From NCBI GenBank assembly GCA_028866995.1, contig JAGWHD010000001.1:636068-700067 (forward strand): DNA of 64,000 nucleotides, read 5' to 3'. Positions 5,586-59,569 of this stretch are shown here, in pieces. The DNA is from Candidatus Micrarchaeota archaeon. Lineage in GTDB: Archaea > Micrarchaeota > Micrarchaeia > Micrarchaeales > CABMGC01. Position 1 is the first letter of the stretch. The number at the start of each line of letters is the position of its first letter. Under the pieces are notes generated by a model that saw only the letters and a program-made list of their open reading frames with translations, was not told where the DNA came from and did not search any database. The translations under genes were made by a program, and so were the position numbers.

Positions 5586-6449
5586 TCATGATGTCGGCGC
5601 GGAATAGCCCGATTGCCAGTTCGCATTCCATATGGCCTTACTGGCAGCGCCCTGGTTGTTGTTGCCTGAATAGTCGTTCGCGTTCCCGTTCAGCGGCCAC
5701 CATCCCGCGAGATGGTTCGGATCCACAGGAACGCCACCTATGCCTTCAAGGTATAATGCCTTGGCAGTGGCATTGTCTAGCGATGCGTTGTATATCTGGA
5801 CATTCGCCACGTATATCGTCTCGCCGTTCGCACCTTGGGCCAGGATAAGTTGCTGACTTCCTGAGAAGATAGTGAAGGAAACAGAATTGCTTTGAACTTG
5901 TACACCGTCAATGTACAGATAGGCGTTGCCGTTTGAGACGCAGGTTATTACAATGCTGTGCCATCTGCTGTCGTTGTAATTGCCGCTACTGGGCTTTATG
6001 TTTAGCACCGTGTGCTGGGTCCCTAGATTGTCGCTAGGTTCAAACTCATAGGCTCCATTGGAAGCTAGGATGAGATTGTAGTTCTGGTTCGCATTGCTTG
6101 TCCCTTTCTCTAGCATATACTGGCCGTTTACATCCGGACCAACCACCTTTATCCAGAGTGAAACGGTGAAGGCCGTCAGGGCCAGCGCAGATGAAGGCGA
6201 CGAGATCGATGCTGACGTACCGGGACCGAACTGCCCGACGTATTTGGGGATTAGGTTACTGCATTGCCCAGCGAGACTGGTCTGCGCAGCCGTCTTCATT
6301 ACCTGGCAAGATCCCGGAGTCGCGGTAGGTTTGAGGCTTCCAGCATTGAATATGCCAAGGGAATAGAGCGAGACCATGACGATCGCAATGGCAAGGATGG
6401 CCCAGCCATATGTCATCAGGTACTCCATCGCCGACTGCAACTTGCGCAT
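5586..6449 (-). CDS. Class III signal peptide (archaeal type IV pilin-like) protein with a LamG/concanavalin-type lectin domain, dispersed paralog
   Basis: N-terminus MRKLQSAMEYLMTYGWAILAIAIVMVSLYSLGIFN (QSxxEY plus hydrophobic helix). LamG-like FTVSLWIKV, RWHSIVITCVSNGNAYLYIDGVQ, VANVQIYNASLD. Conserved tail WWPLNGNANDYSGNNNQG. Confidence 0.75.
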   Translation of the reverse strand: MRKLQSAMEYLMTYGWAILAIAIVMVSLYSLGIFNAGSLKPTATPGSCQVMKTAAQTSLAGQCSNLIPKYVGQFGPGTSASISSPSSALALTAFTVSLWIKVVGPDVNGQYMLEKGTSNANQNYNLILASNGAYEFEPSDNLGTQHTVLNIKPSSGNYNDSRWHSIVITCVSNGNAYLYIDGVQVQSNSVSFTIFSGSQQLILAQGANGETIYVANVQIYNASLDNATAKALYLEGIGGVPVDPNHLAGWWPLNGNANDYSGNNNQGAASKAIWNANWQSGYSAPTS

Positions 6450-11696: not shown

Positions 11697-13229
11697 ATGG
11701 CGAAACCCGCAAGGAAGACACAGTCTGCCCTTGAATACCTCTCAATATACGGAGTCGCCATCTTCATCATAGTCGCTGCCGCAGCAGCCCTCTATCTCCT
11801 CGGAGTCTACTCCCCTCAGAACAACGTCATAGGCACGTGCACGTTTTCGGAAGGGTTCAGCTGCTCCGACCTGAGGCTCTCCAGCGGCGGAGTTCTGCAA
11901 CTGGGTCTTGTCAATGCAGGACAGTATCCGATATACGTGAAAGGCATAGGCTGCAACACCAACAGGAGCGTCATCAACGTAGTCAAGACAACTGGATCCA
12001 ACAACAACACTGTCTACATACCTGTAGGCTCGTCATACGCCCTGACTGTGCAGTGCTATAAAGGCTCCAACCTGTTCTCTGCAGGCGTAGGGTCTCCGTT
12101 CACGGGATACCTAATAGTCAACTACACGGACCAATATACCGAGACAAAAACTACGAGCCTGGGAACCATAAACACGAAAGTGGTACAGGGATCAGCGACG
12201 TCCACTACATTCACTACATCCACAACCTCCACCTCCACATCGTCTACCTCAACGACCTCGACATCCACAAGCTCCTCAACGACCTCGACAAGCACGACAT
12301 CTACATCCACCACATCCACGTCTACTTCGACAAGCACGACATCAACCGTGTCGTACGTCTACTGCGTAGGCGGCTACACCGGCAGCTATATTAATAGTGT
12401 CTACTACGCGCCAGTCTCAAGCACAGGAGTCGGCGCCTGGACTGCAACAACCAACTACCCGACACCAATCTATGAACATTGGTGCTCCTCATCAGGTGGC
12501 TATGTCTACTGCGTAGGCGGCTACACTGGTTCAGCTTACTCAAGCACTGTCTATTACGCACCTATCAGCAGCACAGGCATAGGCACTTGGACTTCAACAA
12601 CAAGCTATCCACTTATCGATTCTTATGGCTGGTGCTCAACATCTGGCAGTGACATCTACTGCGTTGCTGGATATACGGGCAGCACGGCTTACAGCAACGT
12701 CTATTACGCACCTATCAGCAGCACAGGAGTTGGTACTTGGACTTCTACGACCAGTTATCCCCTTTCCATTGCATATTCCCATTGCTCCATATCTGGCAGT
12801 GACATCTACTGCGTTGCTGGTTGGGCGGGAGGGACGTCTTACAGCAACGTCTATTATGCACCAATCAGCGCAACGGGAGTCGGCGCCTGGACCTCAACAA
12901 CCAGCTATCCTATTGCATTATACGAACGCCAATGTATCACCTCCGGTGGTTACATCTATTGCATTGCGGGTTCGGGTGCAAGCAAAAACGTCTACTACGC
13001 ACCCATTTCCAGCAGCGGAGTCGGTGCATGGTCCAGCACTACAGCCTACCCACTGGATGTCGGATATCACAGATGTGCTCTATCTGGCAGCTATGTCTAT
13101 TGCGTAGGAGGCAGTGCACTAACTGCCAGCGTCTACTATGCACCCATTTCCAGCACTGGAGTCGGCGCCTGGACCTCAACAACCAGCTATCCAACATCCG
13201 TCTACGGGCAGTGGTGCTCGGCATCATAA
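11697..13229 (+). CDS. Class III signal peptide (pilin-like) protein with a Ser/Thr-rich linker and six Kelch-like repeats
   Basis: N-terminus MAKPARKTQSALEYLSIYGVAIFIIVAAAAALYL. About 50 aa of pure S/T tract. Six repeats of YCV(G/A)GYTGS...VYYAPISSTGVGAWTSTTSYP. Confidence 0.8.
   Translation: MAKPARKTQSALEYLSIYGVAIFIIVAAAAALYLLGVYSPQNNVIGTCTFSEGFSCSDLRLSSGGVLQLGLVNAGQYPIYVKGIGCNTNRSVINVVKTTGSNNNTVYIPVGSSYALTVQCYKGSNLFSAGVGSPFTGYLIVNYTDQYTETKTTSLGTINTKVVQGSATSTTFTTSTTSTSTSSTSTTSTSTSSSTTSTSTTSTSTTSTSTSTSTTSTVSYVYCVGGYTGSYINSVYYAPVSSTGVGAWTATTNYPTPIYEHWCSSSGGYVYCVGGYTGSAYSSTVYYAPISSTGIGTWTSTTSYPLIDSYGWCSTSGSDIYCVAGYTGSTAYSNVYYAPISSTGVGTWTSTTSYPLSIAYSHCSISGSDIYCVAGWAGGTSYSNVYYAPISATGVGAWTSTTSYPIALYERQCITSGGYIYCIAGSGASKNVYYAPISSSGVGAWSSTTAYPLDVGYHRCALSGSYVYCVGGSALTASVYYAPISSTGVGAWTSTTSYPTSVYGQWCSAS
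12198..12347 (+). repeat. Ser/Thr-only low-complexity coding tract (linker, likely O-glycosylation target)
   Basis: aa 168-217 of the 11697..13229 product: TSTTFTTSTTSTSTSSTSTTSTSTSSSTTSTSTTSTSTTSTSTSTSTTST. Confidence 0.9.
12348..13226 (+). repeat. Six tandem coding repeats of about 135-150 nt (Kelch-like blades)
   Basis: Six VYYAP(I/V)S(S/A)(T/S)G(V/I)G(A/T)W units. Exact DNA copies 150 nt apart: 12549..12577 = 12699..12727 and 12641..12670 = 12791..12820. Confidence 0.9.
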
Positions 13230-13282
13230 CCCGATACTCATCGCACCGACAATCTTATATCCTCTCGCTGGTCATTAGTAGC

Positions 13283-13810
13283 ATGGCGCCAAGATCTGGA
13301 AGGCAAAGGACCAAGCTCCAATCCGCTGTGGAGTACCTTACGACATACTCCTGGGCGCTCATAATCATTGCCATAGCTACAACGACATTCGTGGCATTCG
13401 GGATCTTCAACCCCTCGTCGCAGGTGACCTCGTGCAGCTTCCCTGTAGGCATCGAGTGCAAGCAGACGCTCATGTCATCGAACGGCATCCTCTACCTCAG
13501 CATATCGAACGCCAACCAGTACCCTATAAAGATAACCGCCTCAGGCTGCAACACCAACCAGACGGGCATAGTCACGCAGAACCAGAGCCTCGTGATACTC
13601 GGAGGGAGCACAGCAGCCATATCGATGCAGTGCTATTCCGGGTCAAGCGCCTTCGCTGGTAAGATAGGCGCGCTGTTCAGAGGTTCCCTGCAGCTCAACT
13701 ACACTGAGACGCAGACGGGCACGCCCCATGTCATCTACGGACAGCTGCTTGACAAGGTCTCGTCAGCAGTGTCCATAACGACCTCCGTCACCACCACGAC
13801 AACTATCTGA
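13283..13810 (+). CDS. Short class III signal peptide (pilin-like) protein, paralog of the N-terminal domain of the Kelch-pilin
   Basis: Internal ATG of ORF 12821..13810: MAPRSGRQRTKLQSAVEYLTTYSWALIIIAIATTTFVAFGIFNP. CSFPVGIEC...ISNANQYPIKITASGCNTNQ...MQCYSG parallels CTFSEGFSC...VNAGQYPIYVKGIGCNTNR...VQCYKG in the upstream gene. Confidence 0.7.
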   Translation: MAPRSGRQRTKLQSAVEYLTTYSWALIIIAIATTTFVAFGIFNPSSQVTSCSFPVGIECKQTLMSSNGILYLSISNANQYPIKITASGCNTNQTGIVTQNQSLVILGGSTAAISMQCYSGSSAFAGKIGALFRGSLQLNYTETQTGTPHVIYGQLLDKVSSAVSITTSVTTTTTI

Positions 13811-15605
13811 GCTGCGTCAGGTCAAGCTCCTTGGAGGCGATGTACCTCTCATCAAAGGCCGTGACGAATATCTTGGTATGGTTGTTGACCAGCGGAAGCC
13901 GGTAGCTTATGTTGTACGCTACGGATTCGTGAGCCGGCAGCTTCGGCAGCTGCACCGAGAGCACGTAACCCTGCAGGTTCGGGCTCTGGCTCACTATGTA
14001 GAAGGAGACGTTCTGCTGGTAGTCCGCATTGCTCGAGACGTTTATCCTCAGCTCTCCCAGCGCGTAGCCATTCTGGTATCCGTACACTGAGCTGGGATAG
14101 AGCACAGGGGTAATGCTGTCTATGGCGATGGATCTGTTGCGCAGGTACTCATCGTGCGATATTGCGGCAAGGACCAGCGACGCGACTACGACGAAAGCCA
14201 GCGCGTACCTTGCCTTTATCCTATGGCGATGTTCCTTTCCCTTCCTCTCATGCGAGTAATATACTGCAAGTATCAGCGGAACGAAGGAGAGCCCGTATAT
14301 GGATATATTCCTCCACGACAAGAAGAATATCATAGCAGGCATTATCCCGACCAGCGGCCTGAACCTGTCCGGATCAAGATAGAACAGAACCATTATCGAC
14401 AGTATCGTGATTACGGATATTGCCGTAGGGTACCAGTAGCTTACAGGATAGAACGGGACAAGGAACTGCATTATGTTGGTGCCGTAGAACGGCAGTTTTG
14501 TGGCCAAAAGAAGCACGAAGAGGTTGTTCAGTGTCACGTTCGGCGACCAAGCAATGAAGTAAACGTTCACTATGAGGAAGACTAGCGCAGACATGCCTGC
14601 GCACTTAAGCGCATTCCTCATTCCGTGCTCCTTCAACGCAAGTATGTACATCAAAGGCAGGGCGAACCATGCGAGCTGCGTGGTGCTCGCGGCAAGCCCA
14701 AGGAGCGCGCCTGACAGCAACACCCTTCTTCTTTCGAGATATGCAAGCAGCACGAACATGCTAACTGCGAGGTACGGAGTCACGACGCCTATCAGGCCGT
14801 ACGATGCCATGAACCAGAAGAGCATCGGAAGAAGAACTGCGTTGTTGCCTCCAGACCTGTCGTAGACGATGTAAGCCGCAAGCAGGCTCAGGAATATCAC
14901 GATCGCTATGTAGCTCATGAAGGAGGTTATGCCAAGCAGCGGTATGAACGCGAACACGATGAAGCTTAGCGCAGGATAGTCATAGGTGTACTCGTAAGAA
15001 CCGTTGAGCAGGACCGTGGGGAACACCCCGAGCTTGGTCGTTATGTACTCCATGCTTGTGGTGTATGGATTCTGGCCGTGGACGAAGAGGTATGACGCGT
15101 AATAGTTGAAGGCGAGCTCGTCGACGCCGTGCCAGTTCAGCCTTACGAAGGCGTACATTATGAAGTATGCGATCAACGCTATGGCTGCCACGCCGAGGAG
15201 CACCGCAGCGTATCTCCTGTAGCCCTCAAGCTTGCGCACGGACTTCCTGAGATAATGGATTGCTATGATTGAGAATACGGACGCGGCTGACACGAGGAAC
15301 AGCGGAGTCGAGACGCTCTGCACTATGTTGGGCGCAGGCACATCGACAACGAACTCGTAAGCAGAAAGTATCGCTAGAACAATAGCGATCGCTGCGAAGG
15401 CATACAGGACAGCGCCTTCCAGTTTCGCATCCCTGCCTAGTCTTGAAGGAGCGAGGAATGAGACAAGGGCCACGAGCGCTATCGCGAATATGCCCAAGGA
15501 GCCGGACACGGAGAAGTACTGCTGGTTGGTGAAAAGAAGGTACGAAAGGCCCAGGGCCACTACCGCCAGCGCGAGGTATGCCGATCTTGCGTCTATTCGT
15601 GCCAA
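13803..15605 (-). CDS. Polytopic membrane protein, GT-C-type glycosyltransferase-like (GT87/DUF2029-like)
   Basis: 600 aa, more than 12 predicted TM helices, YDYPALSFIVFAFIPLL-type loop. The C-terminal ~120 aa look soluble. Family assignment is from memory only. Confidence 0.5.
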   Translation of the reverse strand: MARIDARSAYLALAVVALGLSYLLFTNQQYFSVSGSLGIFAIALVALVSFLAPSRLGRDAKLEGAVLYAFAAIAIVLAILSAYEFVVDVPAPNIVQSVSTPLFLVSAASVFSIIAIHYLRKSVRKLEGYRRYAAVLLGVAAIALIAYFIMYAFVRLNWHGVDELAFNYYASYLFVHGQNPYTTSMEYITTKLGVFPTVLLNGSYEYTYDYPALSFIVFAFIPLLGITSFMSYIAIVIFLSLLAAYIVYDRSGGNNAVLLPMLFWFMASYGLIGVVTPYLAVSMFVLLAYLERRRVLLSGALLGLAASTTQLAWFALPLMYILALKEHGMRNALKCAGMSALVFLIVNVYFIAWSPNVTLNNLFVLLLATKLPFYGTNIMQFLVPFYPVSYWYPTAISVITILSIMVLFYLDPDRFRPLVGIMPAMIFFLSWRNISIYGLSFVPLILAVYYSHERKGKEHRHRIKARYALAFVVVASLVLAAISHDEYLRNRSIAIDSITPVLYPSSVYGYQNGYALGELRINVSSNADYQQNVSFYIVSQSPNLQGYVLSVQLPKLPAHESVAYNISYRLPLVNNHTKIFVTAFDERYIASKELDLTQLR

Positions 15606-15623: not shown

Positions 15624-16484
15624 TTACTGGTAAGCTCCAGGGTGCGGCCATTCCACGTCAGCCACGCTGAGCCTGTCGCTGACGCTGGACACCGAGCTCA
15701 TCCTGCTGAAAGCTAGGGCGCCCAAGGCGAAGAGCATTATTACCACTGACACGAGAAGGTTCTGCGTGCCGCTGGTGAGGTATTCATAGCTGAGCAGCAT
15801 CATCGATACTCCGATGACCACGCTGGAGAATATGAACGCCCTGTTTGACTTCGAGAGCGATACAAAAACTGCGATGACGTTGCAGAGAAGTACAAGCGTG
15901 TCCGTCATCGATATGATGTAGCTGTAGTTGTAGTTGCTGATGAGGGCCGATATGCCGGAATTGATCGCGTAGTTGAGTATGTACAATGCCTGCTGGTTGA
16001 AGAGCAGGAAGAGGACCGCAGAATTGACTGCGAATATAGCCGATGCGATGTAGGTGAACATGCTCCTCTGCGTCCTTACCTCCTTCTCCATAGTCGCCTT
16101 GTCTATGTCGGCAAGGCAGTAGTACTTCCCGTTATGTGTCATTATGTCGGCGTAGCAGAACGGGAGCGTGCATACGGAGCATATCGCATATGCGGGCCTC
16201 CAGGGGTGGCTGATGCAGTTCATGTTCTCCACGCTGCCGGGCTTGGGCGCCATCCTGGTCACCTTCTGCTCCAGCTTAGGTTCGGGCTTCGGTTCCTCTC
16301 TAGGCTCTACTTTCTGCTCGGCCTTCGGCTCAGGCTTTGGAACCGGTTTAGGAACAGGCCTTGGTGCTGCTTTCTGGACAGGCTTCGTAGCCTCCGGCGC
16401 TGGCCTGGGCTTCTCCCTTTCCTTCTTGCCCTCTTCGCCCTCCTTCTTTCGCAGCCTGAATATCAGGAGGTCTGAAGAATCCAT
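15624..16484 (-). CDS. Membrane protein with a Pro/Lys-rich repeat region, a Cys-rich (B-box/zinc-ribbon-like) module and about 5 TM helices
   Basis: PKPVPKPEPKAEQKVEPREEPKPEPKLEQK, then CISHPWRPAYAICSVCTLPFCYADIMTHNGKYYCLADI, then a hydrophobic C-terminal half. Confidence 0.5.
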   Translation of the reverse strand: MDSSDLLIFRLRKKEGEEGKKEREKPRPAPEATKPVQKAAPRPVPKPVPKPEPKAEQKVEPREEPKPEPKLEQKVTRMAPKPGSVENMNCISHPWRPAYAICSVCTLPFCYADIMTHNGKYYCLADIDKATMEKEVRTQRSMFTYIASAIFAVNSAVLFLLFNQQALYILNYAINSGISALISNYNYSYIISMTDTLVLLCNVIAVFVSLSKSNRAFIFSSVVIGVSMMLLSYEYLTSGTQNLLVSVVIMLFALGALAFSRMSSVSSVSDRLSVADVEWPHPGAYQ

Positions 16485-19515: not shown

Positions 19516-21240
19516 CTACCTCTTCAGGAAAGAAAGCAATTCCTTGCAGCCCATGGTGTTAATGACGTCGCCTTTCTCCAGCCATCCCCTTCTTGCGACT
19601 CCTATGCCGTACCTCATGAACGAGAGATGGTCTATCGAGTGTGAATCCGTGTCTATGCAGAACTTGAGCTTATGCTTCCTTGCCCTGAATATGTTCTCGT
19701 CGCTCAGGTCCAGCCTGTCCGGAAATCCGTCTATCTCCATGACCACCCCGTTCCTCTCAGCCGCCTCAAAGACCTTGTCGAAGTCGAAGTTTATCGGCTC
19801 CCTCGCGTTTATGAGCCTGTCTGTGGGGTGCGCCCATATGCTGACATGGCCTGAATCAAACGCCCTGACTATCCTCCTTGTCATCTCCTCCTTGGGCATC
19901 GTCAGGCTGGTATGTATGCTCGCAAGCGTATAGTCCATCATGTCCATCGTCTTGCTGGAGAGATCCAGCGAGCCGTCCTTCAGTATGTCTATCTCAGCCC
20001 CTTTCAGTATCCTTATGCCTTCAGCAGAGTCATTGGCCTTGTCTATCGCCGCAAGGTGCTTCACGAACCTCCTGTCGTCCATCCCGTGGGCAACGTACTC
20101 GCTCTTGCTGTGGTCGCTTATGCCTATGTACTCCCTCCCTAGCTTCTTCGCAGCGTCTGCCATCTCCATTATGCTGTACGACCCGTCGCTCGCAGTGGTG
20201 TGCGTGTGAAGGTCTCCCCTTATCTCATCAAGCTCTATCAACTTAGGCAGTTTGTGCTTGATAGCGAGCTCTACCTCTCCGCGGTTCTCGCGCATCTCAG
20301 GGGGCATGCAGTCCATGCCCAGCTTCTTGTATATGTCCTCCTCACCGTCCTTCGACACGTTCCTGCCCTTCTTGTCGAAGAGCCCGTACTCGTTCAGCTT
20401 GTACCCCTTGCCTATCGCTATCTCCCTCAGCTTCACGTTGTGCTCCTTGTTGCCGGTGAAGTACTGGAGAGCCGCGCCGAAGCTCTCATCATCTACCACT
20501 CTAACGTCGCAGTTGAGGCCTATCTTAAGCCTGACCGTCGTCTTGGTTGGTCCCATCAGCACCACGCTCTCAACCTCGCGCATTCCCGATATGAAATCCA
20601 TGACCCTCTCCGGCTTGCCAGAGGTCAAGAGTATGTCCAGATCACCTACCGTCTCCTTCCTCCTTCTCGTGGACCCTCCGATTACCGCTTCATGCACAAG
20701 CCCTGATCCCTTTATGCTTTTGACAATCCTCTCTGCTTCAGGCAGCGCCCTTCCAAGGAGCATCCTTCCGCTGCTGGATTCGTACTGCTGTATGCCCTTC
20801 AGTATGACCTCTTCGCTCCTTTCTCCGAATCCTTCGAGCTTCATTATCCTGTGCTCCTCTATGGCCTTCTTCAGGCTGCCGAGGTCCTTCACCTTCAGCT
20901 CCTTGTAGAGCCTCGCGGCCTTCTTGGCCCCTAATCCAGGTATCTTGGTGAGGGTGTTGAAGTCTATCGGGAACCTCTTCTTCAGTTCGTCATACTTCCC
21001 TATCCTTCCTGTCTTGATGTACTCCTCGATGTGCTGGCTCGTGGATTTTCCTATTCCTGGCAGCTCCTGCAGCGCCTCGAGCCCTCCCCTGGCGTATATG
21101 TCCTCAACAGGCTCCTGCAGGTCCTGTATCGTCTGCGCCGCCTTCCTGTATGCGAGCACCTCGAACTTCCTGTCGACAGTGTCCAGCTCGAGCATGTCAG
21201 CTATCTCCTCAAATATCTCAGCGATCCTCGAATTGACCAT
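19516..21240 (-). CDS. polX: Family X DNA polymerase with a C-terminal PHP domain
   Basis: From the internal ATG MVNSRIAEIFEEIADMLEL. HhH motifs PGIGKSTSQHI and PGLGAKKA. GSTRRRKETVGDLDIL. PHP motif GDLHTHTTASDG. The track's longer N-terminus reads through the 3' end of the upstream LamG gene in another frame. Confidence 0.85.
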   Translation of the reverse strand: MVNSRIAEIFEEIADMLELDTVDRKFEVLAYRKAAQTIQDLQEPVEDIYARGGLEALQELPGIGKSTSQHIEEYIKTGRIGKYDELKKRFPIDFNTLTKIPGLGAKKAARLYKELKVKDLGSLKKAIEEHRIMKLEGFGERSEEVILKGIQQYESSSGRMLLGRALPEAERIVKSIKGSGLVHEAVIGGSTRRRKETVGDLDILLTSGKPERVMDFISGMREVESVVLMGPTKTTVRLKIGLNCDVRVVDDESFGAALQYFTGNKEHNVKLREIAIGKGYKLNEYGLFDKKGRNVSKDGEEDIYKKLGMDCMPPEMRENRGEVELAIKHKLPKLIELDEIRGDLHTHTTASDGSYSIMEMADAAKKLGREYIGISDHSKSEYVAHGMDDRRFVKHLAAIDKANDSAEGIRILKGAEIDILKDGSLDLSSKTMDMMDYTLASIHTSLTMPKEEMTRRIVRAFDSGHVSIWAHPTDRLINAREPINFDFDKVFEAAERNGVVMEIDGFPDRLDLSDENIFRARKHKLKFCIDTDSHSIDHLSFMRYGIGVARRGWLEKGDVINTMGCKELLSFLKR

Positions 21241-21281
21241 GATAAAAATACGGCTTAGGAATAGATAAATTTTGGCTTTTG

Positions 21282-22169
21282 CTAAGTGGGTCCTGTATAC
21301 GTGCTCTGCCAGTTCGCATTCCATACGACAGGCTGGACGGCACCCCCACCTATGGTGTTCACGCCCTGGTAGTTGTTGCCAGAGTAGTCGTTCATGTTCC
21401 CGTTGAGCGGCCACCACGCGACCGTCTTCTGCGGGTTTATCGGTGCGCCCCCTATGCCCTCATTGTACAGCGAGGTCAATGACGCCTTGTCCAGAGAGAC
21501 GTTGTACACCTGTATATTAGCAAGGTAGCCGGTCCACAGGGAGCCCCCGTTGCCTCCGCCAATGTCTACAACAGTCGACGGGGTGTAGAACAGGTTCCCG
21601 TTGCCGCCGAAGGTCTGCACCGTAGAGTACGTGCCGCTGCTGTTGATTACCGTTATGTTGGCGTTTCCGTTCGTGTTGTTCAGGTTCACGCTGACGAACT
21701 CCCAAGCACGGAAAACGATCGGAGTCAGTTGACCGTAGTTCCCGTAACTGGTCACGTTCTTGAATATGAAAGAAGGGCTGGGGCAGTCCTTCACTCCCAT
21801 TGTCGAACCGTGAAAGCCGCCTGACTGCCATATCGACATGATGACAGTCGGGCTGACGCAGCTTTGCATGTTGTCATATTCCCAGAATGTGAAGGTATAT
21901 GCGCTTCCGGCCTGCGCCCACGAAACGGCAACCTGCGCATTGCCGTTGAACTGCCCTATGTATTTCGGGATGAGATTGCTGCACTGCCCGGCAAGGCTTG
22001 TCTGCGCCGCTGTTCTTACGACTTCGCATGAGCCCGGAGCGGCGACAGGCTGCAGGCTGCCCGAATTGAATATCCCAAGGGAATAGAGCGACACCATGAC
22101 GATTGCAATGGCGAGGATCGCCCATCCATAGGTCATCAGGTATTCCATCGCAGATTGAAATTTTAACAT
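21282..22169 (-). CDS. Class III signal peptide protein with a divergent LamG-like domain (tandem copy A)
   Basis: Start MLKFQSAMEYLMTYGWAILAIAIVMVSLYSLGIFN at 22169. YTFTFWEY, GYLANIQVYNVSLD, tail WWPLNGNMNDYSGNNYQG. Confidence 0.7.
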   Translation of the reverse strand: MLKFQSAMEYLMTYGWAILAIAIVMVSLYSLGIFNSGSLQPVAAPGSCEVVRTAAQTSLAGQCSNLIPKYIGQFNGNAQVAVSWAQAGSAYTFTFWEYDNMQSCVSPTVIMSIWQSGGFHGSTMGVKDCPSPSFIFKNVTSYGNYGQLTPIVFRAWEFVSVNLNNTNGNANITVINSSGTYSTVQTFGGNGNLFYTPSTVVDIGGGNGGSLWTGYLANIQVYNVSLDKASLTSLYNEGIGGAPINPQKTVAWWPLNGNMNDYSGNNYQGVNTIGGGAVQPVVWNANWQSTYTGPT

Positions 22170-22188
22170 CCGAATCACGATGAAGGGG
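22151..22188 (-). repeat. 38-nt gene-junction repeat, copy 1 (identical to 23014..23051)
   Basis: cagattgaaattttaacatccgaatcacgatgaagggg occurs exactly at both LamG gene junctions. It spans the start codon, a 5-nt spacer and the preceding stop. Confidence 0.9.
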
Positions 22189-23032
22189 TGGTATATCCAG
22201 ACTGCCAGTTGGCATTCCATGTAACATTGAATGGCGTGCCTTGCCTGTTGCTTCCAGAATAGTCGTTGGCGTTGCCGTTGAGCGGCCACCACCCCACAAC
22301 GTGCTGTACATCTATCGGTGCTCCCCCTATCCCTTCCATGTATAGGGCCTTTACAGAAGAGTTGTCAAGCGATACATTGTAAATCTGCGCGTTTGCCACC
22401 AATCCGTTGAATCCCCTGCCTATATAGTAAGGATTGGTGCTGTTGGAACACATGCCTGACTGCAATGTGCTCGATCTCTTCACGCCGTCGATGTAAAGAG
22501 TTACTGTCGATCCGTTGTAGGTCGCCAAGGCCTGGTGCCATCTCTTATCCGTTATCGAAACGCTGCCAGTGGCCGCAAACAAAGAACCGTCGCAGGTCGG
22601 ATACTTGCCGAATTCAACGTAAACAAGAGCTCCCCAGTTGTTGGTTCTTATGGCCGAATAGTAATGGCTGTCACGACTCGCAGAAGCTCCAACTAGATAA
22701 GGCCACTGTGAAAGCGTTGAGTTGCCTGCATATCTTACCCATACTGAATAGGTGAAATTGCCTCCGTATGCCATCGGCACCCCAACATTAATGTTCGAAT
22801 TGTACTTGTTGTAATTGGCTGTGTACTTGGGTATGATATTGCCGCACTGCCCGGCAAGGCTTGTCTGTGCCACTGTCCTCACGACCTGGCAGGATCCTGG
22901 AGTAGCTGTCGGCTGCAGGTTTCCCGTGTTGAATATGCCAAGCGAATAGAGCGATACCATGACGATCGCAATGGCGAGGATGGCCCATCCATAGGTCATC
23001 AGGTACTCCATTGCAGATTGAAATTTTAACAT
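22175..23032 (-). CDS. Class III signal peptide protein with a LamG lectin-like domain (tandem copy B)
   Basis: MLKFQSAMEYLMTYGWAILAIAIVMVSLYSLGIFN. FTYSVWVRY, RWHQALATYNGSTVTLYIDGVK, VANAQIYNVSLD, WWPLNGNANDYSGSNRQG. An alternative GTG start lies at 23041. Confidence 0.75.
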   Translation of the reverse strand: MLKFQSAMEYLMTYGWAILAIAIVMVSLYSLGIFNTGNLQPTATPGSCQVVRTVAQTSLAGQCGNIIPKYTANYNKYNSNINVGVPMAYGGNFTYSVWVRYAGNSTLSQWPYLVGASASRDSHYYSAIRTNNWGALVYVEFGKYPTCDGSLFAATGSVSITDKRWHQALATYNGSTVTLYIDGVKRSSTLQSGMCSNSTNPYYIGRGFNGLVANAQIYNVSLDNSSVKALYMEGIGGAPIDVQHVVGWWPLNGNANDYSGSNRQGTPFNVTWNANWQSGYTTPSS

Positions 23033-23051
23033 CCGAATCACGATGAAGGGG
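23014..23051 (-). repeat. 38-nt gene-junction repeat, copy 2
   Basis: Exact copy of 22151..22188. Confidence 0.9.
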
Positions 23052-23904
23052 CGGCATACCCGCTCTGCCAGTTCGCGTTCCAGTTTACGTTCGTCGGTGT
23101 GCCTTGGTTGTTGTTTCCGGAATAATCATTCACATTGCCGTTCAGCGGCCACCACCCTACTAAATGCTTTACATCTATGGGTACGCCACCAATCCCTTCC
23201 TGATAAAGGGCTTTCACTGCTGCACTATCAAGAGAGGTATTGTAAACCTGGACATTCGATATCGAACCATTATAGCCATAGCCGACATAATACGGCGTAC
23301 TGCCTGGGCATAAACCAGATTGTGATGCGCTGTTCTGTTTGATGCCATCGACATAAAGGACTAACGCAGAGCCGTTGTAGGTCCCGACTGCTTGGTGCCA
23401 TTTCCCGTCTGAAATCGACACGCCTCCGGCGTTAGTGTAGCTTGTGCCATCGCATGTCGGATACTTTCCATACTCCAGGAAGACGCTAGCTCCCCAATTG
23501 GACGTCCTCAGTGCTGACCATTCGTGGCTTCCCTGCCCTGCAGATGCGCCGAGGATGGTCGGCCATTGGGAGACTGTTTTATTAGAAAGGTACTTGATCC
23601 AGATGACATAGGTGAAGTTACCGCCAAAAGGCATCGGGGTGCCGACAGTAATAAGCGACGAATACCCGACCCTTCCCACATACTTCGGGATGAGGTTGTT
23701 GCACTGCCCTGCGAGGCTCGTCTGCGCAGCCGTCCTCACGACCTGGCAGGATCCAGTTGTTGCTGTAGGCTGCAAATTCCCAGTATTGAATATCCCCAAC
23801 GAGTATAAGGAAACCATGACAATGGCAATGGCGAGTATGGCCCATCCATAGGTCATCAGGTACTCCATCGCTGACTGCAACCTTGTCTTTTTCAGGATGG
23901 CCAT
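23038..23904 (-). CDS. Class III signal peptide protein with a LamG lectin-like domain (tandem copy C)
   Basis: MAILKKTRLQSAMEYLMTYGWAILAIAIVMVSLYSLGIFN. FTYVIWIKY, KWHQAVGTYNGSALVLYVDGIK, ISNVQVYNTSLD, WWPLNGNVNDYSGNNNQG. Confidence 0.75.
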   Translation of the reverse strand: MAILKKTRLQSAMEYLMTYGWAILAIAIVMVSLYSLGIFNTGNLQPTATTGSCQVVRTAAQTSLAGQCNNLIPKYVGRVGYSSLITVGTPMPFGGNFTYVIWIKYLSNKTVSQWPTILGASAGQGSHEWSALRTSNWGASVFLEYGKYPTCDGTSYTNAGGVSISDGKWHQAVGTYNGSALVLYVDGIKQNSASQSGLCPGSTPYYVGYGYNGSISNVQVYNTSLDSAAVKALYQEGIGGVPIDVKHLVGWWPLNGNVNDYSGNNNQGTPTNVNWNANWQSGYAAPSS

Positions 23905-23971
23905 GTCATTTCCACTATATGTCGTTTTTTGCAAAGCTATTTATTATTGCCATACGTCATTACACTGAGGC

Positions 23972-28040: not shown

Positions 28041-28517
28041 TTAGAACCTGTTCGACTTCCTGTCGGTTATTGCCTCGTCTACAGAATGCCTCTTTATCAC
28101 AAGCGCCTTTATCCTGTCGACGTCCTGCACGTGCCTCTCCTTCGCTATCTTCTCGGCCTGCTTGAGCTTGTTGGCGTAGGAGTTGTACGCGATCATCGCA
28201 GCGGCCAGCGCGTCCCTCTCGTGCAGGTTCTCGAGCTCCCTGCCATGTGCAATCTGCTGCTTCCTGTCGACGCTTACGTCGGCATCAGGCGTGAATATCG
28301 AGGAACCGAATATCGCAGCGAGCCTGTGCACCAGCGACTGCGCGTTCCGCTTGTCGCTCGCTATGACAACCGGGGTGCCCTTCTCACGTATCCTGTCGAC
28401 GAACCATTCCAGGCCCACGAACCTCCCCGTGTCTATTCCTACGACGTTGCCGTCAAGGTCTATTGACACTACCGCTGCGGTCTTCCCCGAGTCTATCCCT
28501 ATTATCGTGTGCTTCAT
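28041..28517 (-). CDS. RNase H-fold nuclease-like protein (RuvC/YqgF/DUF460-like)
   Basis: MKHTIIGIDSGKTAAVVSIDLDGNVVGI...PVVIASDK pattern. ATGA overlap with the upstream gene's stop. The start could also be 28523. Confidence 0.45.
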   Translation of the reverse strand: MKHTIIGIDSGKTAAVVSIDLDGNVVGIDTGRFVGLEWFVDRIREKGTPVVIASDKRNAQSLVHRLAAIFGSSIFTPDADVSVDRKQQIAHGRELENLHERDALAAAMIAYNSYANKLKQAEKIAKERHVQDVDRIKALVIKRHSVDEAITDRKSNRF

Positions 28518-29566
28518 GAGCATATTCCGCTTCCGGAATGGCATATCGCGTTCCTTGCGGTCTGCGGCAGCGCCATGTACTGGCAGTCTGCCACGGCTAT
28601 CGGTGTTGATGTTATGTTGTAGTACTTGGCCAGAAGCGCCTGCGAGTTTATCGGATTCTGCGACGACGCCAGGCACGAATTGAGCCTCACCGTGTCCAGT
28701 TTCGAGATGTTAGCTATGCTTGCGAGAGTCGCAGGCGAGATGTATCCGTTGAACGCTGCAAGGCTTCCGGAAAAGTTCGCGAAGTTCTGCTGTGAAGAGG
28801 CGCAGAAGAGATACTTGCCAAGCTGCGCTGCGTTGTCCTGGCCGTGCGCGCCGCCTATGCCCTGCGAGTACTGGCTGTACAGTATCTCCAGGCTCATGTT
28901 GACCTTGCTGCCATAATCATGCTCGAGCTGCGTGTAGTTAGCGAGACTGCCCAACGCGCCAGGCGCATAAGGGTCCATGAACCAGTACACCGGCACGGTC
29001 CCGTTGGCCTGCAGGCATGGCACCTTCCCGTAGAGTTTGACGACTCCTGCGGAGACCACCTGGTTCTGCGAGAGCGGAGTGGGGTTAACTGTCTCCTGGA
29101 ACGGCATGACTACCGAGCCGTTGGCATCGTCTATTATCGCGGAGATGTTGAAGCTCTGGTTCGTGATCGGGTTGCTCGCCCTGACCGAAACGTACCACTG
29201 CCTTGCGCTAGGCATGTACTCGGCCTGTATCGCGCTTACGTTGGTTATGTACGGTATGAGCGCAAGCGTGCTGTTCATGCTGGCATAGCTCGCGAGCAGC
29301 CTCTCGGCTATGCCCTTTACCTGGCTTGCGTTGTAGTTGGGACTTATGCAGGTGCCGTTGTAAGCGCCGTAGGCGCACGAGCCGTTCGGGGAGATGTTCT
29401 GTACAAGAACCGGTCTGTTGTAGGCGATGGCCAGGAGCAGAAGCACCAGCACGATGACAAGGATGACAAGAGCCATGTGTATGCTGTCAAGGCCGCCGAA
29501 CCTCGACAGGGGCTTTACTATGATGCTGGGCTCCTTTATGTCAGCCGTTTTGCTCTTCTTGGCCAT
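28514..29566 (-). CDS. Membrane-anchored DsbA/thioredoxin-like domain protein lacking the CxxC motif
   Basis: N-terminal TM ALVILVIVLVLLLLAIA. VPVYWFMDPYAPGALGS sits where DsbA-like proteins carry D..CP.C. GKYLFCASSQQNFANF resembles the qgkf..f helix. Many N-x-S/T sequons. Confidence 0.45.
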   Translation of the reverse strand: MAKKSKTADIKEPSIIVKPLSRFGGLDSIHMALVILVIVLVLLLLAIAYNRPVLVQNISPNGSCAYGAYNGTCISPNYNASQVKGIAERLLASYASMNSTLALIPYITNVSAIQAEYMPSARQWYVSVRASNPITNQSFNISAIIDDANGSVVMPFQETVNPTPLSQNQVVSAGVVKLYGKVPCLQANGTVPVYWFMDPYAPGALGSLANYTQLEHDYGSKVNMSLEILYSQYSQGIGGAHGQDNAAQLGKYLFCASSQQNFANFSGSLAAFNGYISPATLASIANISKLDTVRLNSCLASSQNPINSQALLAKYYNITSTPIAVADCQYMALPQTARNAICHSGSGICS

Positions 29567-29577
29567 GGTAATCATTA

Positions 29578-36529: not shown

Positions 36530-37945
36530 TCAGATCGTCGCGAGCCCCAATATTGACCATCTGTTAGAGACCGTAGTCTGTACCACTCCAAGGGTATTGG
36601 CAACCTCGCGCTGCGTCCTGTACCCTACCTCTTGGTCGATGTACCTTGCATGCGCATCCTTGTAGTCTTCGTCGGCAAGCTCCTTCCGGGGCTTGCGGAC
36701 TTTCTTCTCCACAAGGCCTAGTTTCCTGACTCTTGCGGACATCGCACCCTGCGTCAGGCCCACCCTATTGCCCATCTCAGCCTGAGTGCCTCCAAGCCTG
36801 AACGCCGCTATTATCTCGTCGTCGCTCACCCCGCCGTTGGATAAGGGCACCTCCAGTTCCAACTCCCCGGCTCTCTTGCGGTAGACTTGATGGCTGATGC
36901 CGATCTCTTTCCTCGCCTGCGGCGCCGTCAAGCCCCTCGAAATTGCATCGGTTATCTGCTCGTCGCTGTATGCCTTTCTCCTATTCGGCATGAGTTCCAG
37001 CTTTCTCATCCTCGAATATACTGCCCATCTGCTCATCCTGTACTCAGAGGCTATCTCCTCCGGCATCTTTCCGGCCTCATGCGCTGCAATGAGCTGTTCA
37101 TTCGTGATCTTTTGGAAACGTCCCTTGGCAATCCTGTGCGCTGCCTGACGCTTCTCCGGCCTGTTCGGCTCCAGTTCCAGCCTGTTTAGCAGCACACGTA
37201 CCCAGTTCTGGCCTATGCCAAACAATGCAGCCATCTCCGATACGGTCTTTCCTTCGCGCTGCGCAGTTATGAGTTGCTCGTCAGTTACCTTTCTTCTCCC
37301 AGCTCTTTTTCCTTTGCGTTCGGATTCATGTGCTGGTCCATTCCTCGCAGGTCTGTTGGGCTGGAGCCCCATCTTCCTGAGTCTAGGGTAGAATGTGTTG
37401 GGATGCAGGTTGCATTCTGCAGCCATCTCAGCTACAGTCTTGCCGTCCGCATGCATCTCCCTTATCTTCTGTTCGCTGACCTTTCCGTTGCCGGCCGGAG
37501 AACCACCGTTTCTCCGTCTGAGATAGCTCCTCTCGAACTCCTCGTCGCTTAGGCGCTGCGCTTCTCTAATTGCAGCCGCTTCAGCTTCCCTGCCGTGCTC
37601 TACTACAACGTCCGGATACCTCTTTGCAAGCATCTCCTTGTACGCGCTGTTGCCTATGTCAAGCGCGGGCCTGACGCCGTTCGCTGTCACGTTCAACGTG
37701 CTCAGCATTAGCTTCTTCTCGACCTCGACTCTCCTGCACTCGAACAGCGCCTGCAGCTCCTTCGGGAGCTTGCTGTAGTTCGCGGGCTCGCTGATGCTTC
37801 CGAATTCCCCCTCCACTCTTCTCAAAAGCTCGAAATAGGGCCTGCTCCTGTCGAGGAGCCTGTGTACCTTCTCCTCACCGCCCTTGCCCCCGAACATTGA
37901 CTGGGCGCTGTTAGGGCTCGTCCTATAAGCATCAGAACCTGCCAT
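36530..37945 (-). CDS. Protein with six tandem helix-turn-helix modules after a ~155-aa N-terminal domain of unknown function
   Basis: Five repeats of (V/I)(S/T)(D/E)EQ(I/L)...G(K)T..E(M/I)A...(HTH)...L.L.PNR, plus a sixth variant RTQREVANTLGVVQTTVSNRWSILGL. Confidence 0.6.
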   Translation of the reverse strand: MAGSDAYRTSPNSAQSMFGGKGGEEKVHRLLDRSRPYFELLRRVEGEFGSISEPANYSKLPKELQALFECRRVEVEKKLMLSTLNVTANGVRPALDIGNSAYKEMLAKRYPDVVVEHGREAEAAAIREAQRLSDEEFERSYLRRRNGGSPAGNGKVSEQKIREMHADGKTVAEMAAECNLHPNTFYPRLRKMGLQPNRPARNGPAHESERKGKRAGRRKVTDEQLITAQREGKTVSEMAALFGIGQNWVRVLLNRLELEPNRPEKRQAAHRIAKGRFQKITNEQLIAAHEAGKMPEEIASEYRMSRWAVYSRMRKLELMPNRRKAYSDEQITDAISRGLTAPQARKEIGISHQVYRKRAGELELEVPLSNGGVSDDEIIAAFRLGGTQAEMGNRVGLTQGAMSARVRKLGLVEKKVRKPRKELADEDYKDAHARYIDQEVGYRTQREVANTLGVVQTTVSNRWSILGLATI

Positions 37946-47745: not shown

Positions 47746-47844
47746 CCCGTTGTAGCTCAATGGCTAGAGCGGCCGCCTGTAGTTCGTAGCAGCACTTACG
47801 TGTTGGAAAGCGGCAGGTTGGGTGTTCGACTCACCCCAACGGGA
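47746..47844 (+). tRNA. tRNA-Tyr (anticodon GTA) with a 26-nt canonical intron (47783..47808)
   Basis: Hand fold: acceptor CCCGTTG/CAACGGG (C1-G72, as expected for archaeal tRNA-Tyr), D arm GCTC/GAGC, anticodon stem GCCGC/GCGGC enclosing CTGTAG+26+A, T arm GGGTG-TTCGACT-CACCC, discriminator A. Confidence 0.8.
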
Positions 47845-57223: not shown

Positions 57224-59569
57224 TCAGGATGCGCTGCGCGATACGGTTATGTTTCTCATCCCGAACTGGAAGTAGGAAGATGTGCTGCTCTGGTTGATGC
57301 CGAATAAGGAAGTGCCGTTGGTGACGAGGAACGCAATCTGGCTGTATCCCTGCGGCAGCACGACGTCGACAGAATAGCCCACGCTCCTGTTGGTCAGCTG
57401 CACGCTGCCCACCTGCTGGTTGGCCAGGTATATGCCCAGCTGCGCGCTTCCTGTGTAAGAAGCCGCTTGGAACGATACCTTGGCCTTTGTGACTCCGGGA
57501 GCGTATACGCCTATGCCCCTATATCCGTTGCCGAACCACATGGTCTCTGTATCCGTATTGCAGTACAATGCCTGGCACACTGCGAATCCAGGCTGCCAGT
57601 TGCCGAGCGCATACGAGACTATGGCGTTGCCCGTCATGTTGGCTATCGCGGCGCTGGTCTCGAACACGAATGTTGTGTTGTCCTGGTACACAGGCGCGCC
57701 CATCATGCCATAGAGGTACGAGTATAGCATCTGCTGCTCGGAGAGCGTGTATGCGCTCCTTGCAACTGCGACATACGCGACCCTGTCGTTCAGGATCCAG
57801 AAGAGGGTAGCGTTCGTAACGTTCTGCGATATAGGGGACGGATAGACGAGCCCCTGCCCATACTGCAGGTACAGCGCCTGCACCGCAAGCGGTATGTACT
57901 CTACTGAAAGCTGCTGCGAGGTGTTGACCCTTGTGGCGTAGCCGCCGATTATCGGCTTCTTGAGATCCGTGACATAGTAAGTTGCTATTCCTGGATATAA
58001 CTGCGGCGTAGAGGAGTTCTGGTTCGTTATTATCGGTAACTGCAATACGGAGAAGTTGCCCTGCACATGCCCTATCTCGGCATATGCCTTGGGTATGATT
58101 GTGGACATCGTCAGCGAGTTGGCGAAGGAGCCCGAGAGCGGCATGCCGTTGTATTCAATAAGTATAATGACTGCGATTATCGCCATGTACTTGAGCGAGT
58201 CGGTCTTGCTCCTGTTCTTGGATATGTGCGAGAAGCCCATGGCTGCGAGTATCGCAAGCGCAACAGTAGCTACGATATCGAACCTTCCAGGCTCTCTTAT
58301 CAGGTTGAATATCGGTATGTGCGAGTAGAGCGCGTATATTCCCGGTATGGTAGTGGCATTGGAGTAGACCTGGAGATAGGGTCCTAGCGAGAGGAGCGCA
58401 TAAACAGCAAGCGTCACTATCCATAGAACCGAGTTCCTCAGTTTGTGGTGCTTGTAGTCGTAGTATATGGCTATCAGGATCAGCGCAAGCACAGAGTATC
58501 CTACATAAGATGTCCTTTCCGCTATGTCTGGCAGCGACGTAGCCCCTGCAATTGTCAGGCTGTATATCTTGCCTGCGTAAGAGGCGCTTAGGCCATGGAA
58601 TATGCCGTTGTAATATCCCGGAAGGAAGAACGAGGCAAGGTCGTTGCTCCATAGCATGCTGCTTATGGTGGAGGTGCCTGCCTGCGCCGTGCCCAGCTGC
58701 GAGCCTACATTTGGAAGTATGAACACCAGGAACGGAGAGGCGATTACCAGGAAAGACAACGGTATGACTGCGAGCCTTGTAACCGTCTGAACGTTGAGCA
58801 GCATCTCGCGGTAGCGCTTCATCGCCAGCATTATGGCGAGAGTCGTTATCGTGAAGAACGCTACGAGCACGCCCTGCTGAAGGTCTCCCATGAAACTGAC
58901 CAGGACCAAGGAAAGGCCTGCAAGCAGAGGATACTCGAACCTTTTCTCCTCAACGGTCTTGAACAGAAGGAGCGCGTACAGCGGTATCCACTCTATGATC
59001 GTCCAGTCGAGGTGCGCATACGCGTGCGCTATGTGTATCGGGCTGAACGCGTAGACAAGGCCTGCGAGGAACGCCGCGTGCCTGTTCCTGATGAAGTGCT
59101 CAGAGAGCATGAACATGAATATGCCTGAAAGGGCGAAGCTGGTGAAGAATAAAACGTTGTACGCCAGCGCGCTGCTGACCCACCATACAGGAGCGACCAG
59201 TATGCCAGCCAAAGGAGTCATCGTCTGCGTCACGAAGTTCGCGCCGATAGGATAGTACAGGAGGCTGGTGAAGTATGGCGACTGGTGCAGGCTGAATATC
59301 GAGTACGGGACCCACCAGAGGTTGAAGAGGCTCTGGTACCCGTCCGCAGTGGCGTTGACTATCCTGGAAGTGGCATTCACGGTGACCTGCCAGAACATGA
59401 CGAGCGCGATGAGAAGATACAATCCGAAGGCTACGTAATAGGTCCTGTTCCTGGAGATGTGGTGGCGAATCCCTACTTGCCTGTGCGCCTCGTGCGCCTG
59501 CGGCGCCTCGGAAGTCTCGGCCGTATGCGTCACATGCCCAGCATTAGTCTCTTCCATGGTAACCTTCAC
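57224..59569 (-). CDS. Large polytopic membrane protein, GT-C glycosyltransferase-like (YfhO-like), with a ~300-aa extracytoplasmic C-terminal domain
   Basis: 781 aa, more than 12 TM. No WWDYG motif, so probably not AglB/STT3. The family call is tentative. Confidence 0.4.
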   Translation of the reverse strand: MKVTMEETNAGHVTHTAETSEAPQAHEAHRQVGIRHHISRNRTYYVAFGLYLLIALVMFWQVTVNATSRIVNATADGYQSLFNLWWVPYSIFSLHQSPYFTSLLYYPIGANFVTQTMTPLAGILVAPVWWVSSALAYNVLFFTSFALSGIFMFMLSEHFIRNRHAAFLAGLVYAFSPIHIAHAYAHLDWTIIEWIPLYALLLFKTVEEKRFEYPLLAGLSLVLVSFMGDLQQGVLVAFFTITTLAIMLAMKRYREMLLNVQTVTRLAVIPLSFLVIASPFLVFILPNVGSQLGTAQAGTSTISSMLWSNDLASFFLPGYYNGIFHGLSASYAGKIYSLTIAGATSLPDIAERTSYVGYSVLALILIAIYYDYKHHKLRNSVLWIVTLAVYALLSLGPYLQVYSNATTIPGIYALYSHIPIFNLIREPGRFDIVATVALAILAAMGFSHISKNRSKTDSLKYMAIIAVIILIEYNGMPLSGSFANSLTMSTIIPKAYAEIGHVQGNFSVLQLPIITNQNSSTPQLYPGIATYYVTDLKKPIIGGYATRVNTSQQLSVEYIPLAVQALYLQYGQGLVYPSPISQNVTNATLFWILNDRVAYVAVARSAYTLSEQQMLYSYLYGMMGAPVYQDNTTFVFETSAAIANMTGNAIVSYALGNWQPGFAVCQALYCNTDTETMWFGNGYRGIGVYAPGVTKAKVSFQAASYTGSAQLGIYLANQQVGSVQLTNRSVGYSVDVVLPQGYSQIAFLVTNGTSLFGINQSSTSSYFQFGMRNITVSRSAS

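Follow-up and report, generated by a model that had tools for sequence, protein, structure and literature searches.

Lectin modules carried on type IV pilins have already been published for bacteria: the PilC protein of S. sanguinis is a glycan binder that modelling places at the pilus tip, and architectures combining IPR012902 with PF13385 are common in bacteria of the candidate phyla radiation (PMC8179133, PMC9934059). In these modular pilins, as in the family described here, a short pilin moiety with an N-terminal helix of class III type, including Glu5, bears a module of ConA/LamG type; the stem is also found with Kelch-type and other heads, and glycan adhesion presented by type IV pili (T4P) has been proposed. 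Among archaea, the DUF361/Epd pilins of Methanococcus maripaludis, which are processed by EppA, likewise combine a short basic leader with Gln at +1 and Glu at +5, are encoded by scattered genes and include some large members of 200–299 aa (PMC3875500). In the Tat-fimbriae of haloarchaea, TafC joins a filament-subunit domain to a C-terminal LamG domain; it occurs at about one copy for every 100 major subunits and has been proposed as the tip subunit and tip adhesin (PMC11821415). An expansion of LamG proteins in DPANN archaea has also been published, for Micrarchaeon Mia14 in 2017 (PMC5498576) and as arCOG07813 in Undinarchaeota (PMC7414124); Mia14 encodes two T4P systems and one FlaK-like peptidase, and its jelly-roll LamG proteins, whose genes are partly T4P-linked, were proposed to act in host interaction (PMC5498576). 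The present analysis concerns a LamG gene family in a 64-kb stretch of contig JAGWHD010000001.1 from a Candidatus Micrarchaeota archaeon, referred to as the window (G+C ~54%). The products of this family are probably modular type IV pilin-like surface lectins, in which one conserved assembly stem carries variable LamG heads for adhesion to host or matrix glycans, and the Micrarchaeota LamG-like expansion is most likely the same protein family.

Compared with the bacterial modular pilins, the present family is archaeal and has Gln+1, Glu5 and Tyr6 with no N-methylation motif and a non-Gly residue at position −1; its head follows only a helix and a disulfide hairpin instead of a full pilin module, an edge element of its LamG fold appears circularly permuted to the C-terminus, and it comprises ~25 paralogs per ~0.85-Mb genome as against one minor pilin. 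The leaders of the M. maripaludis Epd pilins end in Gly and match PF04021, whereas the present proteins have F, L, S or A at −1 and no PF04021 match, and add Tyr+6, which is Flp-like, and the LamG head. A sequence-only reading of the window had regarded a lectin-headed pilin as unusual, which was an overstatement in view of the bacterial precedents (PMC8179133, PMC9934059) and of the Micrarchaeota LamG expansion (PMC5498576). The new details are an archaeal pilin-type stem on the LamG family, a relaxed position −1, the permuted tail and the existence of old paralogs with extreme constraint on the stem. A pilin-type N-terminus, a conserved-ends layout, a permuted tail or the age of the paralogs was not found described in the searched passages of PMC5498576 and PMC7414124, and full-text literature searches found no paper describing a fusion of LamG and pilin in archaea or DPANN.

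Four members of the family lie within the window, three of them in a tandem triplet:

23038..23904, minus strand: gene C, first of the triplet; 288 aa, leader MAILKKTRL; open reading frame (ORF), Laminin_G_3 match (1.2e-12) and alignment
23013..23051, minus strand: B/C junction, second copy of the exact 39-nt junction
22175..23032, minus strand: gene B; 285 aa, leader MLKF; Laminin_G_3 match (3.4e-15), AlphaFold (AF2) model and Foldseek
22150..22188, minus strand: A/B junction, comprising the last codons of B, the stop, the 5-nt spacer and the first codons of A; identical to 23013–23051
21282..22169, minus strand: gene A; 295 aa, leader MLKF, most divergent core; AF2 model and Foldseek
5586..6449, minus strand: gene D, dispersed paralog; 287 aa, leader MRKL; Laminin_G_3 (1.4e-14) and Toxin_R_bind_N (2.8e-7) matches

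All four ORFs named in the sequence-only reading are present in the ORF list, and the spacers within the triplet are 5 nt each, as it had stated; the duplicated junction, which it gave as 38 nt, is indeed exact but extends over 39 nt (22150–22188 = 23013–23051), against a background of ~80% nucleotide identity. The gene C protein runs, in order, through the leader, a QSAMEYL... helix, a disulfide hairpin, the LamG head and a WWPL tail. Genes B and C are the closest paralogs (69% aa identity), and A and B are 95% identical across their first 60 nt, with identity decaying thereafter. The product of gene B corresponds to database protein P0001 at 100% identity and to P0002 at 69%, and that of gene A is P0069, annotated as ‘hypothetical protein KGH69_03795’ (100% identity). 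A AATAATAAATAG box at 23937–23948, ~33–44 nt upstream of gene C, is a candidate archaeal TATA box, and gene D has its own AATAAATAA box ~21–29 nt upstream.

The proteins are conserved at both ends and variable between them. In the alignment, residues Q5–N35 (QSAMEYLMTYGWAILAIAIVMVSLYSLGIFN) are invariant in A, B, C and D, and the C-terminal tail, WWPLNGN.NDYSG.N.QG...WNANWQS.Y, is conserved in all four, as the sequence-only reading had noticed. Its description of conserved ends around a variable middle was also borne out by the entropy per site over 105 homologs, which was 0.42 bits for residues 5–35, 1.31 bits for residues 36–70, 2.73 bits for residues 71–222 (2.58 in strands and 2.91 in loops), 1.08 bits for residues 223–240 and 1.20 bits for the tail. 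Invariant columns in this set all fell within the first 70 residues, the final strand and helix, or the tail, and no core residue was invariant family-wide.

This layout belongs to a large family. A word-indexed database search returned 2,400 homologs, the named matches being all Micrarchaeota, and an exhaustive phmmer search of 1.84 billion representatives gave 8,646 matches at E ≤ 1e-3, 2,156 at E ≤ 1e-10 and 628 at E ≤ 1e-30; in public data the family forms >600 clusters at 50% identity. The related loci are all from metagenome-assembled genomes of Micrarchaeota, and tandem pairs occur in the relatives L005, L006, L007 and L009. The source contig (726,952 bp) carries at least 21 copies and a 119,919-bp contig with KGH69_ tags carries 4 more, so that the family numbers at least 25 copies in this small genome, or ~2–3% of the genes in a genome of ~0.85 Mb or more. 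Members annotated as ‘hypothetical’ bear the locus tags 01130, 03345, 03450, 03560, 03795, 04710 and 04770, a spread that shows the copies to be dispersed across the genome.

The LamG-like centre proposed by the sequence-only reading was recovered by independent means for different copies. The Pfam profile Laminin_G_3 (PF13385) matched B, C and D with 56.9, 48.7 and 54.9 bits, respectively (cut-off 27.6), whereas a Pfam scan of the full protein gave no LamG match for A. Structural models place A with the others: the AlphaFold model of B (pLDDT 83.4, pTM 0.83) is a LamG/pentraxin sandwich, and that of A (pLDDT 82.1, pTM 0.81), built with the family alignment, has the same strand pattern. The predicted layout comprises a helix at residues 7–30, a hairpin at 48–61 flanked by Cys48 and Cys63, both invariant, then ~12 strands that form the sandwich, a further helix at 224–233 and tail strands predicted with confidence. 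Foldseek searches of the PDB with both models retrieved the PAPP-A LamG domain, pentraxins, neurexin LNS domains and botulinum neurotoxin (BoNT) Hc with E-values of 1e-8 to 1e-10, the best being the PAPP-A LamG domain (7e-9 for B and 4.5e-10 for A), and a profile of the 105 homologs searched against the PDB matched LamG, pentraxin, sialidase-lectin and BoNT Hc chains. Because AlphaFold and Foldseek group A, like B, with LamG-type domains, LamG heads are assigned to all four proteins, A included, on Pfam matches for B, C and D and on predicted structures for A and B. The TafC model NF052521 (cut-off 410 bits) matched B and C weakly and over the LamG part only, the scores being 29.7 and 23.9 bits. 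TafC also differs in its twin-arginine signal and donor-strand assembly, and the leaders of A, B, C and D contain no RR motif; with 24–30 bits against a cut-off of 410 and no twin-arginine signal, membership of the TafC family was rejected.

The conserved tail appears to be part of this fold. Two homologs of ~1,100 aa, P0361 and P0364, have a class III-like N-terminus (K-I/L↓QIALEY/F, the arrow standing before +1) followed by four LamG units; the WWPL...W motif lies ahead of units 2–4 and the last unit ends without it, while unit 1 comes after the N-terminal domain and the motif stands behind it. A further homolog, P0362 (623 aa), starts with a QSAMEYLMTYGW N-terminus and contains two LamG units that both have the tail at their C-terminal end; an intervening repeat domain is also present between its LamG units. 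The three look like giant multi-lectin pilin-like proteins. When the tail of B or D was moved ahead of its own core and the result was aligned to a canonical internal LamG unit, the permuted protein aligned end to end with that unit (residues 0–215 of 218), and the permuted scores exceeded the native ones (229 vs 175, 182 vs 130, 205 vs 150 and 158 vs 98). Since the permuted order aligns fully and outscores the native order, the tail is, as judged from these alignments, the element that normally forms the N-terminal edge of a LamG unit, here contributed from the C side. This arrangement would amount to a circular permutation or to an excerpt from a LamG array taken out of phase. Against PDB sequences, a profile of the tail alone gave nothing significant.

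The copies are old paralogs with strong purifying selection on the N-terminus. Within the 66-codon N-terminal block, pairs differ at 20–29 synonymous codons and at just 4–8 non-synonymous codons, with a dN/dS of 0.03–0.09; Nei-Gojobori pS was 0.46–0.72 in this block and 0.66–0.88 elsewhere. The age follows from the saturation of synonymous sites between copies, the invariant N-terminus included, and the same saturation makes the dN/dS of the core uninformative on diversifying selection. The recent tandem duplication that the sequence-only reading had deduced is thereby ruled out for A–D, the proportion of synonymous differences being 0.46–0.88 across every region. Signs of anything recent are limited to the junction duplicate, which is exact, and to the first 60 nt of A and B, which are 95% identical; we read the 39-nt identity as short local gene conversion, as a translational-coupling constraint at the stop and start, or as both.

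The N-terminus carries the residues of a pilin-type signal. Lys or Arg stands at −2 in 102 of 106 homologs, Gln+1, Glu+5 and Tyr+6 (Q5, E9 and Y10) are invariant in 105 sequences, and a hydrophobic helix of ~25 residues, modelled at residues 7–30, follows. Pilins encoded in Micrarchaeota T2SSE operons (L013 and L017) read KA↓QGSLEYI, RA↓QLSLEL, KA↓QMSLEV and RM↓QASLEF, so that the motif [KR]-x↓Q-x-x-[LM]-E is common to the LamG proteins and the operon pilins, one of which has M at −1. Because this operon-encoded pilin has M there, the Micrarchaeota prepilin peptidase may be relaxed at −1, which would bear on the specificity of archaeal prepilin peptidases. Gln at +1 and Glu at +5 are also present in the substrates of M. 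maripaludis EppA (PMC3875500).

Two further genes in the window, identified by a motif scan, encode products with the same type of N-terminus:

11697..13229, plus strand: Kelch-pilin protein, 510 aa; RKT↓QSALEYL, pilin globular module, Thr/Ser linker and Kelch-type beta-propeller (motif scan and Kelch Pfam match)
13283..13810, plus strand: short pilin-like protein, 175 aa; TKL↓QSAVEYLTTYSWA... (motif scan)

The Kelch-pilin has the layout of a modular pilin in the sense of Raynaud et al. (2021), namely a complete pilin module, a linker and an extra module. Its N-terminal module is homologous to short pilins, and the short pilin is itself homologous to proteins of 158–159 aa in L013 and L014 and is a candidate for the major or core subunit of this system. 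With these two products, the LamG proteins have only their first ~45 residues in common. A minus-strand gene for a membrane protein of ~600 aa (13803–15605) converges on the pilin pair at 11697–13810; its product and that of 57224–59569 (minus strand, 781 aa) are polytopic, with 6–11 predicted transmembrane (TM) helices, a C-terminal extracytoplasmic part and no Pfam match. In the relatives L001 and L019, PMT_2-type glycosyltransferases lie near a 438-aa T2SSE ATPase, and the two membrane proteins of the window may be glycosyltransferases acting on surface proteins.

The ATPase itself, a T2SSE/CpaF-like protein of 437–443 aa, is unusually conserved (60–88% identity across Micrarchaeota), and is usually stand-alone, divergent from sdhA and outside pilus operons:

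437–443-aa ATPase in related loci: L001, 163–1479; L004, 2556–3875; L014, 10001–11317; L019, L021 and L023, 4001–5330

A T2SSE ATPase, P0123, which is 88% identical to that of L001, is encoded on the source contig. In L004 a LamG-pilin gene starts 13 nt downstream of the 438-aa ATPase gene, and in L014 the gene immediately upstream of this ATPase encodes a short pilin, the homolog of the window's short pilin. A conserved ATPase-pilin operon was considered and rejected, the 438-aa ATPase being mostly beside sdhA with variable neighbours.

Our preferred reading is that these proteins are probable pilus-presented lectins. The short basic leader and the hydrophobic helix would insert the protein into the membrane, a FlaK/EppA-type prepilin peptidase would cut ahead of Gln+1, and the near-invariant helix with Glu5 and Tyr6 would form a shared assembly module, through which a T4P/Tad-like ATPase and platform would build the protein into a pilus-like structure or set it at the tip. 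Glu5 and Tyr6 are also found in Flp/Tad and Epd pilins, and near-invariance is typical of helices packing in a filament core. A helix packed in this way is favoured here because the segment is near-invariant despite saturated synonymous sites, a constraint that a plain anchor does not need. The LamG head would bind glycans or glycoproteins of the host or of a biofilm matrix; residues 36–70 and 211–285, its conserved part, are taken as the base of the head, the hypervariable core would give differing specificities, and the ~25 old paralogs per genome would constitute a repertoire of heads on a common stem. As context only, Micrarchaeum depends on the galactose- and mannose-rich biofilm matrix of its host (PMC8975820).

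Several observations weigh against this reading. The residue at −1 is F, F, L and L in A, B, C and D, respectively, and S in 47, L in 32, A in 11 and G in 2 of 106 homologs, so that the canonical G/A is absent from the four proteins. PF04021 (Class_IIIsignal) gave no match at E ≤ 1 with the full proteins or at E ≤ 10 with isolated N-terminal peptides, and no NCBIfam pilin model matched the LamG proteins of the window. The class III signal claimed by the sequence-only reading is thus recovered as a motif (K/R at −2, Q+1, E+5, Y+6 and the helix), as in the T4P-operon pilins of Micrarchaeota, but not as a profile match or a canonical −1 residue; a bona fide operon pilin in L013 itself scores 22 bits with PF04021, below the cut-off of 23.7. 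The LamG proteins also lack a full pilin globular module, having only the helix and the Cys48–Cys63 disulfide hairpin. Domain scans of the window detected neither an ATPase nor a platform protein or peptidase. The 438-aa ATPase mostly stands as an orphan beside sdhA and abuts pilin genes only sporadically, and no operon-type ATPase (~500 aa) turned up for the source contig within the best 120 matches.

Three other explanations were considered. The proteins might be displayed by a pseudopilus or bindosome-like system, in which the class III-type N-terminus is cleaved and a T4P-like system tethers the lectins in a short structure of the envelope or S-layer, with no extended adhesive filament. 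Bindosome proteins do resemble the present family in placing a class III-type N-terminus on a ligand-binding body that is not a pilin fold, and class III signals on non-pilin archaeal surface proteins are established, as far as the references in PMC3875500 indicate; moreover, one N-terminus bears diverse heads here (LamG in ~25 copies, Kelch and the short form), and the genes are scattered among housekeeping genes and not in pilus operons. However, bindosome proteins are ABC-transporter solute-binding proteins with a dedicated Bas system, whereas the present proteins have LamG folds, and accessory genes of Bas type were not seen. The extreme degree to which the helix is conserved suits the filament model equally well, sequence alone cannot separate the two, and we regard bindosome-like display as rather unlikely. 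If the proteins were instead uncleaved signal-anchor lectins, the helix would be a TM anchor inserted by Sec and the signal recognition particle, with neither peptidase cleavage nor pilus machinery. This would account for the PF04021 result, the non-canonical −1 residue and the lack of pilus machinery in the window, and other studies of DPANN archaea describe LamG or lectin-like proteins that bear a TM helix or signal peptide at the N-terminus as Sec substrates (PMC9563170; bioRxiv 10.1101/2023.10.27.564410). It would leave unexplained 31 residues that are invariant across old paralogs at such low dN/dS, the invariance of both a charged Glu+5 inside a hydrophobic segment and a Gln+1 after K/R-x, and the identity of the motif in operon-encoded pilins; an anchor of this kind therefore appears improbable.

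The heads could also be enzymes, ConA-like glucanases, lyases or sialidase-type proteins that degrade glycans of the host envelope or of extracellular polymeric substances, given that the ConA-like superfamily includes glycoside hydrolases and that Pfam and PDB searches gave weak similarities to an arabinanase module and to lectin domains associated with sialidases. Both in sequence and in structure, the top-ranking matches are to non-catalytic domains (LamG, pentraxin, neurexin LNS, BoNT Hc and CBM-like), and the core has no family-wide invariant residue suggestive of a catalytic site, which makes an enzymatic function very improbable.

If confirmed as pilus-presented lectins, the proteins would be concrete candidate adhesins for the recognition and holding of hosts by DPANN archaea, and would show that the ‘modular pilin’ principle known from bacteria holds for archaea as well. 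A more speculative extension, which we hold to be doubtful, is combinatorial host recognition, in which ~25 interchangeable heads on an invariant stem form mosaic or alternately expressed filaments with the short pilin and the Kelch-pilin, and the head repertoire decides which host cells or matrix glycans can be attached to. If true, this repertoire would be a genetic determinant of DPANN host range.

The genes of the window are mainly housekeeping genes. The neighbours of the triplet appear from ORF translations to encode PolX, FtsZ and a Rad50-like protein, and elsewhere the window encodes ArgRS, FtsY, enzymes of arginine and pyrimidine biosynthesis, and Cdc48. The PolX ORF (19516–21417, minus strand), as mechanically called, begins at a GTG inside gene A; its true start is most likely the ATG at 21240 (MVNSRIAEIF...), which leaves 41 nt between gene A and PolX, and C-B-A-PolX may be a single transcription unit.

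Other features of the window include two putative membrane or surface proteins, neither with a Pfam match. The first (15624–16484, minus strand, 286 aa) has a Lys/Pro/Glu-rich, repetitive N-terminus of KPEPK type, a Cys-rich segment and four predicted TM helices. The second (28514–29575, minus strand, 353 aa) combines a single N-terminal TM helix with numerous N-x-S/T sequons and several Cys residues, and is likely to be a glycosylated surface protein. A 99-nt tRNA at 47746–47844 on the plus strand, recognised by Rfam (56 bits) and not reported by ARAGORN, is probably an intron-containing archaeal tRNA. The 471-aa product of 36530–37945 (minus strand) shows many separate weak helix-turn-helix Pfam matches at positions ~160–460 and looks like an unusual protein with multiple helix-turn-helix units.

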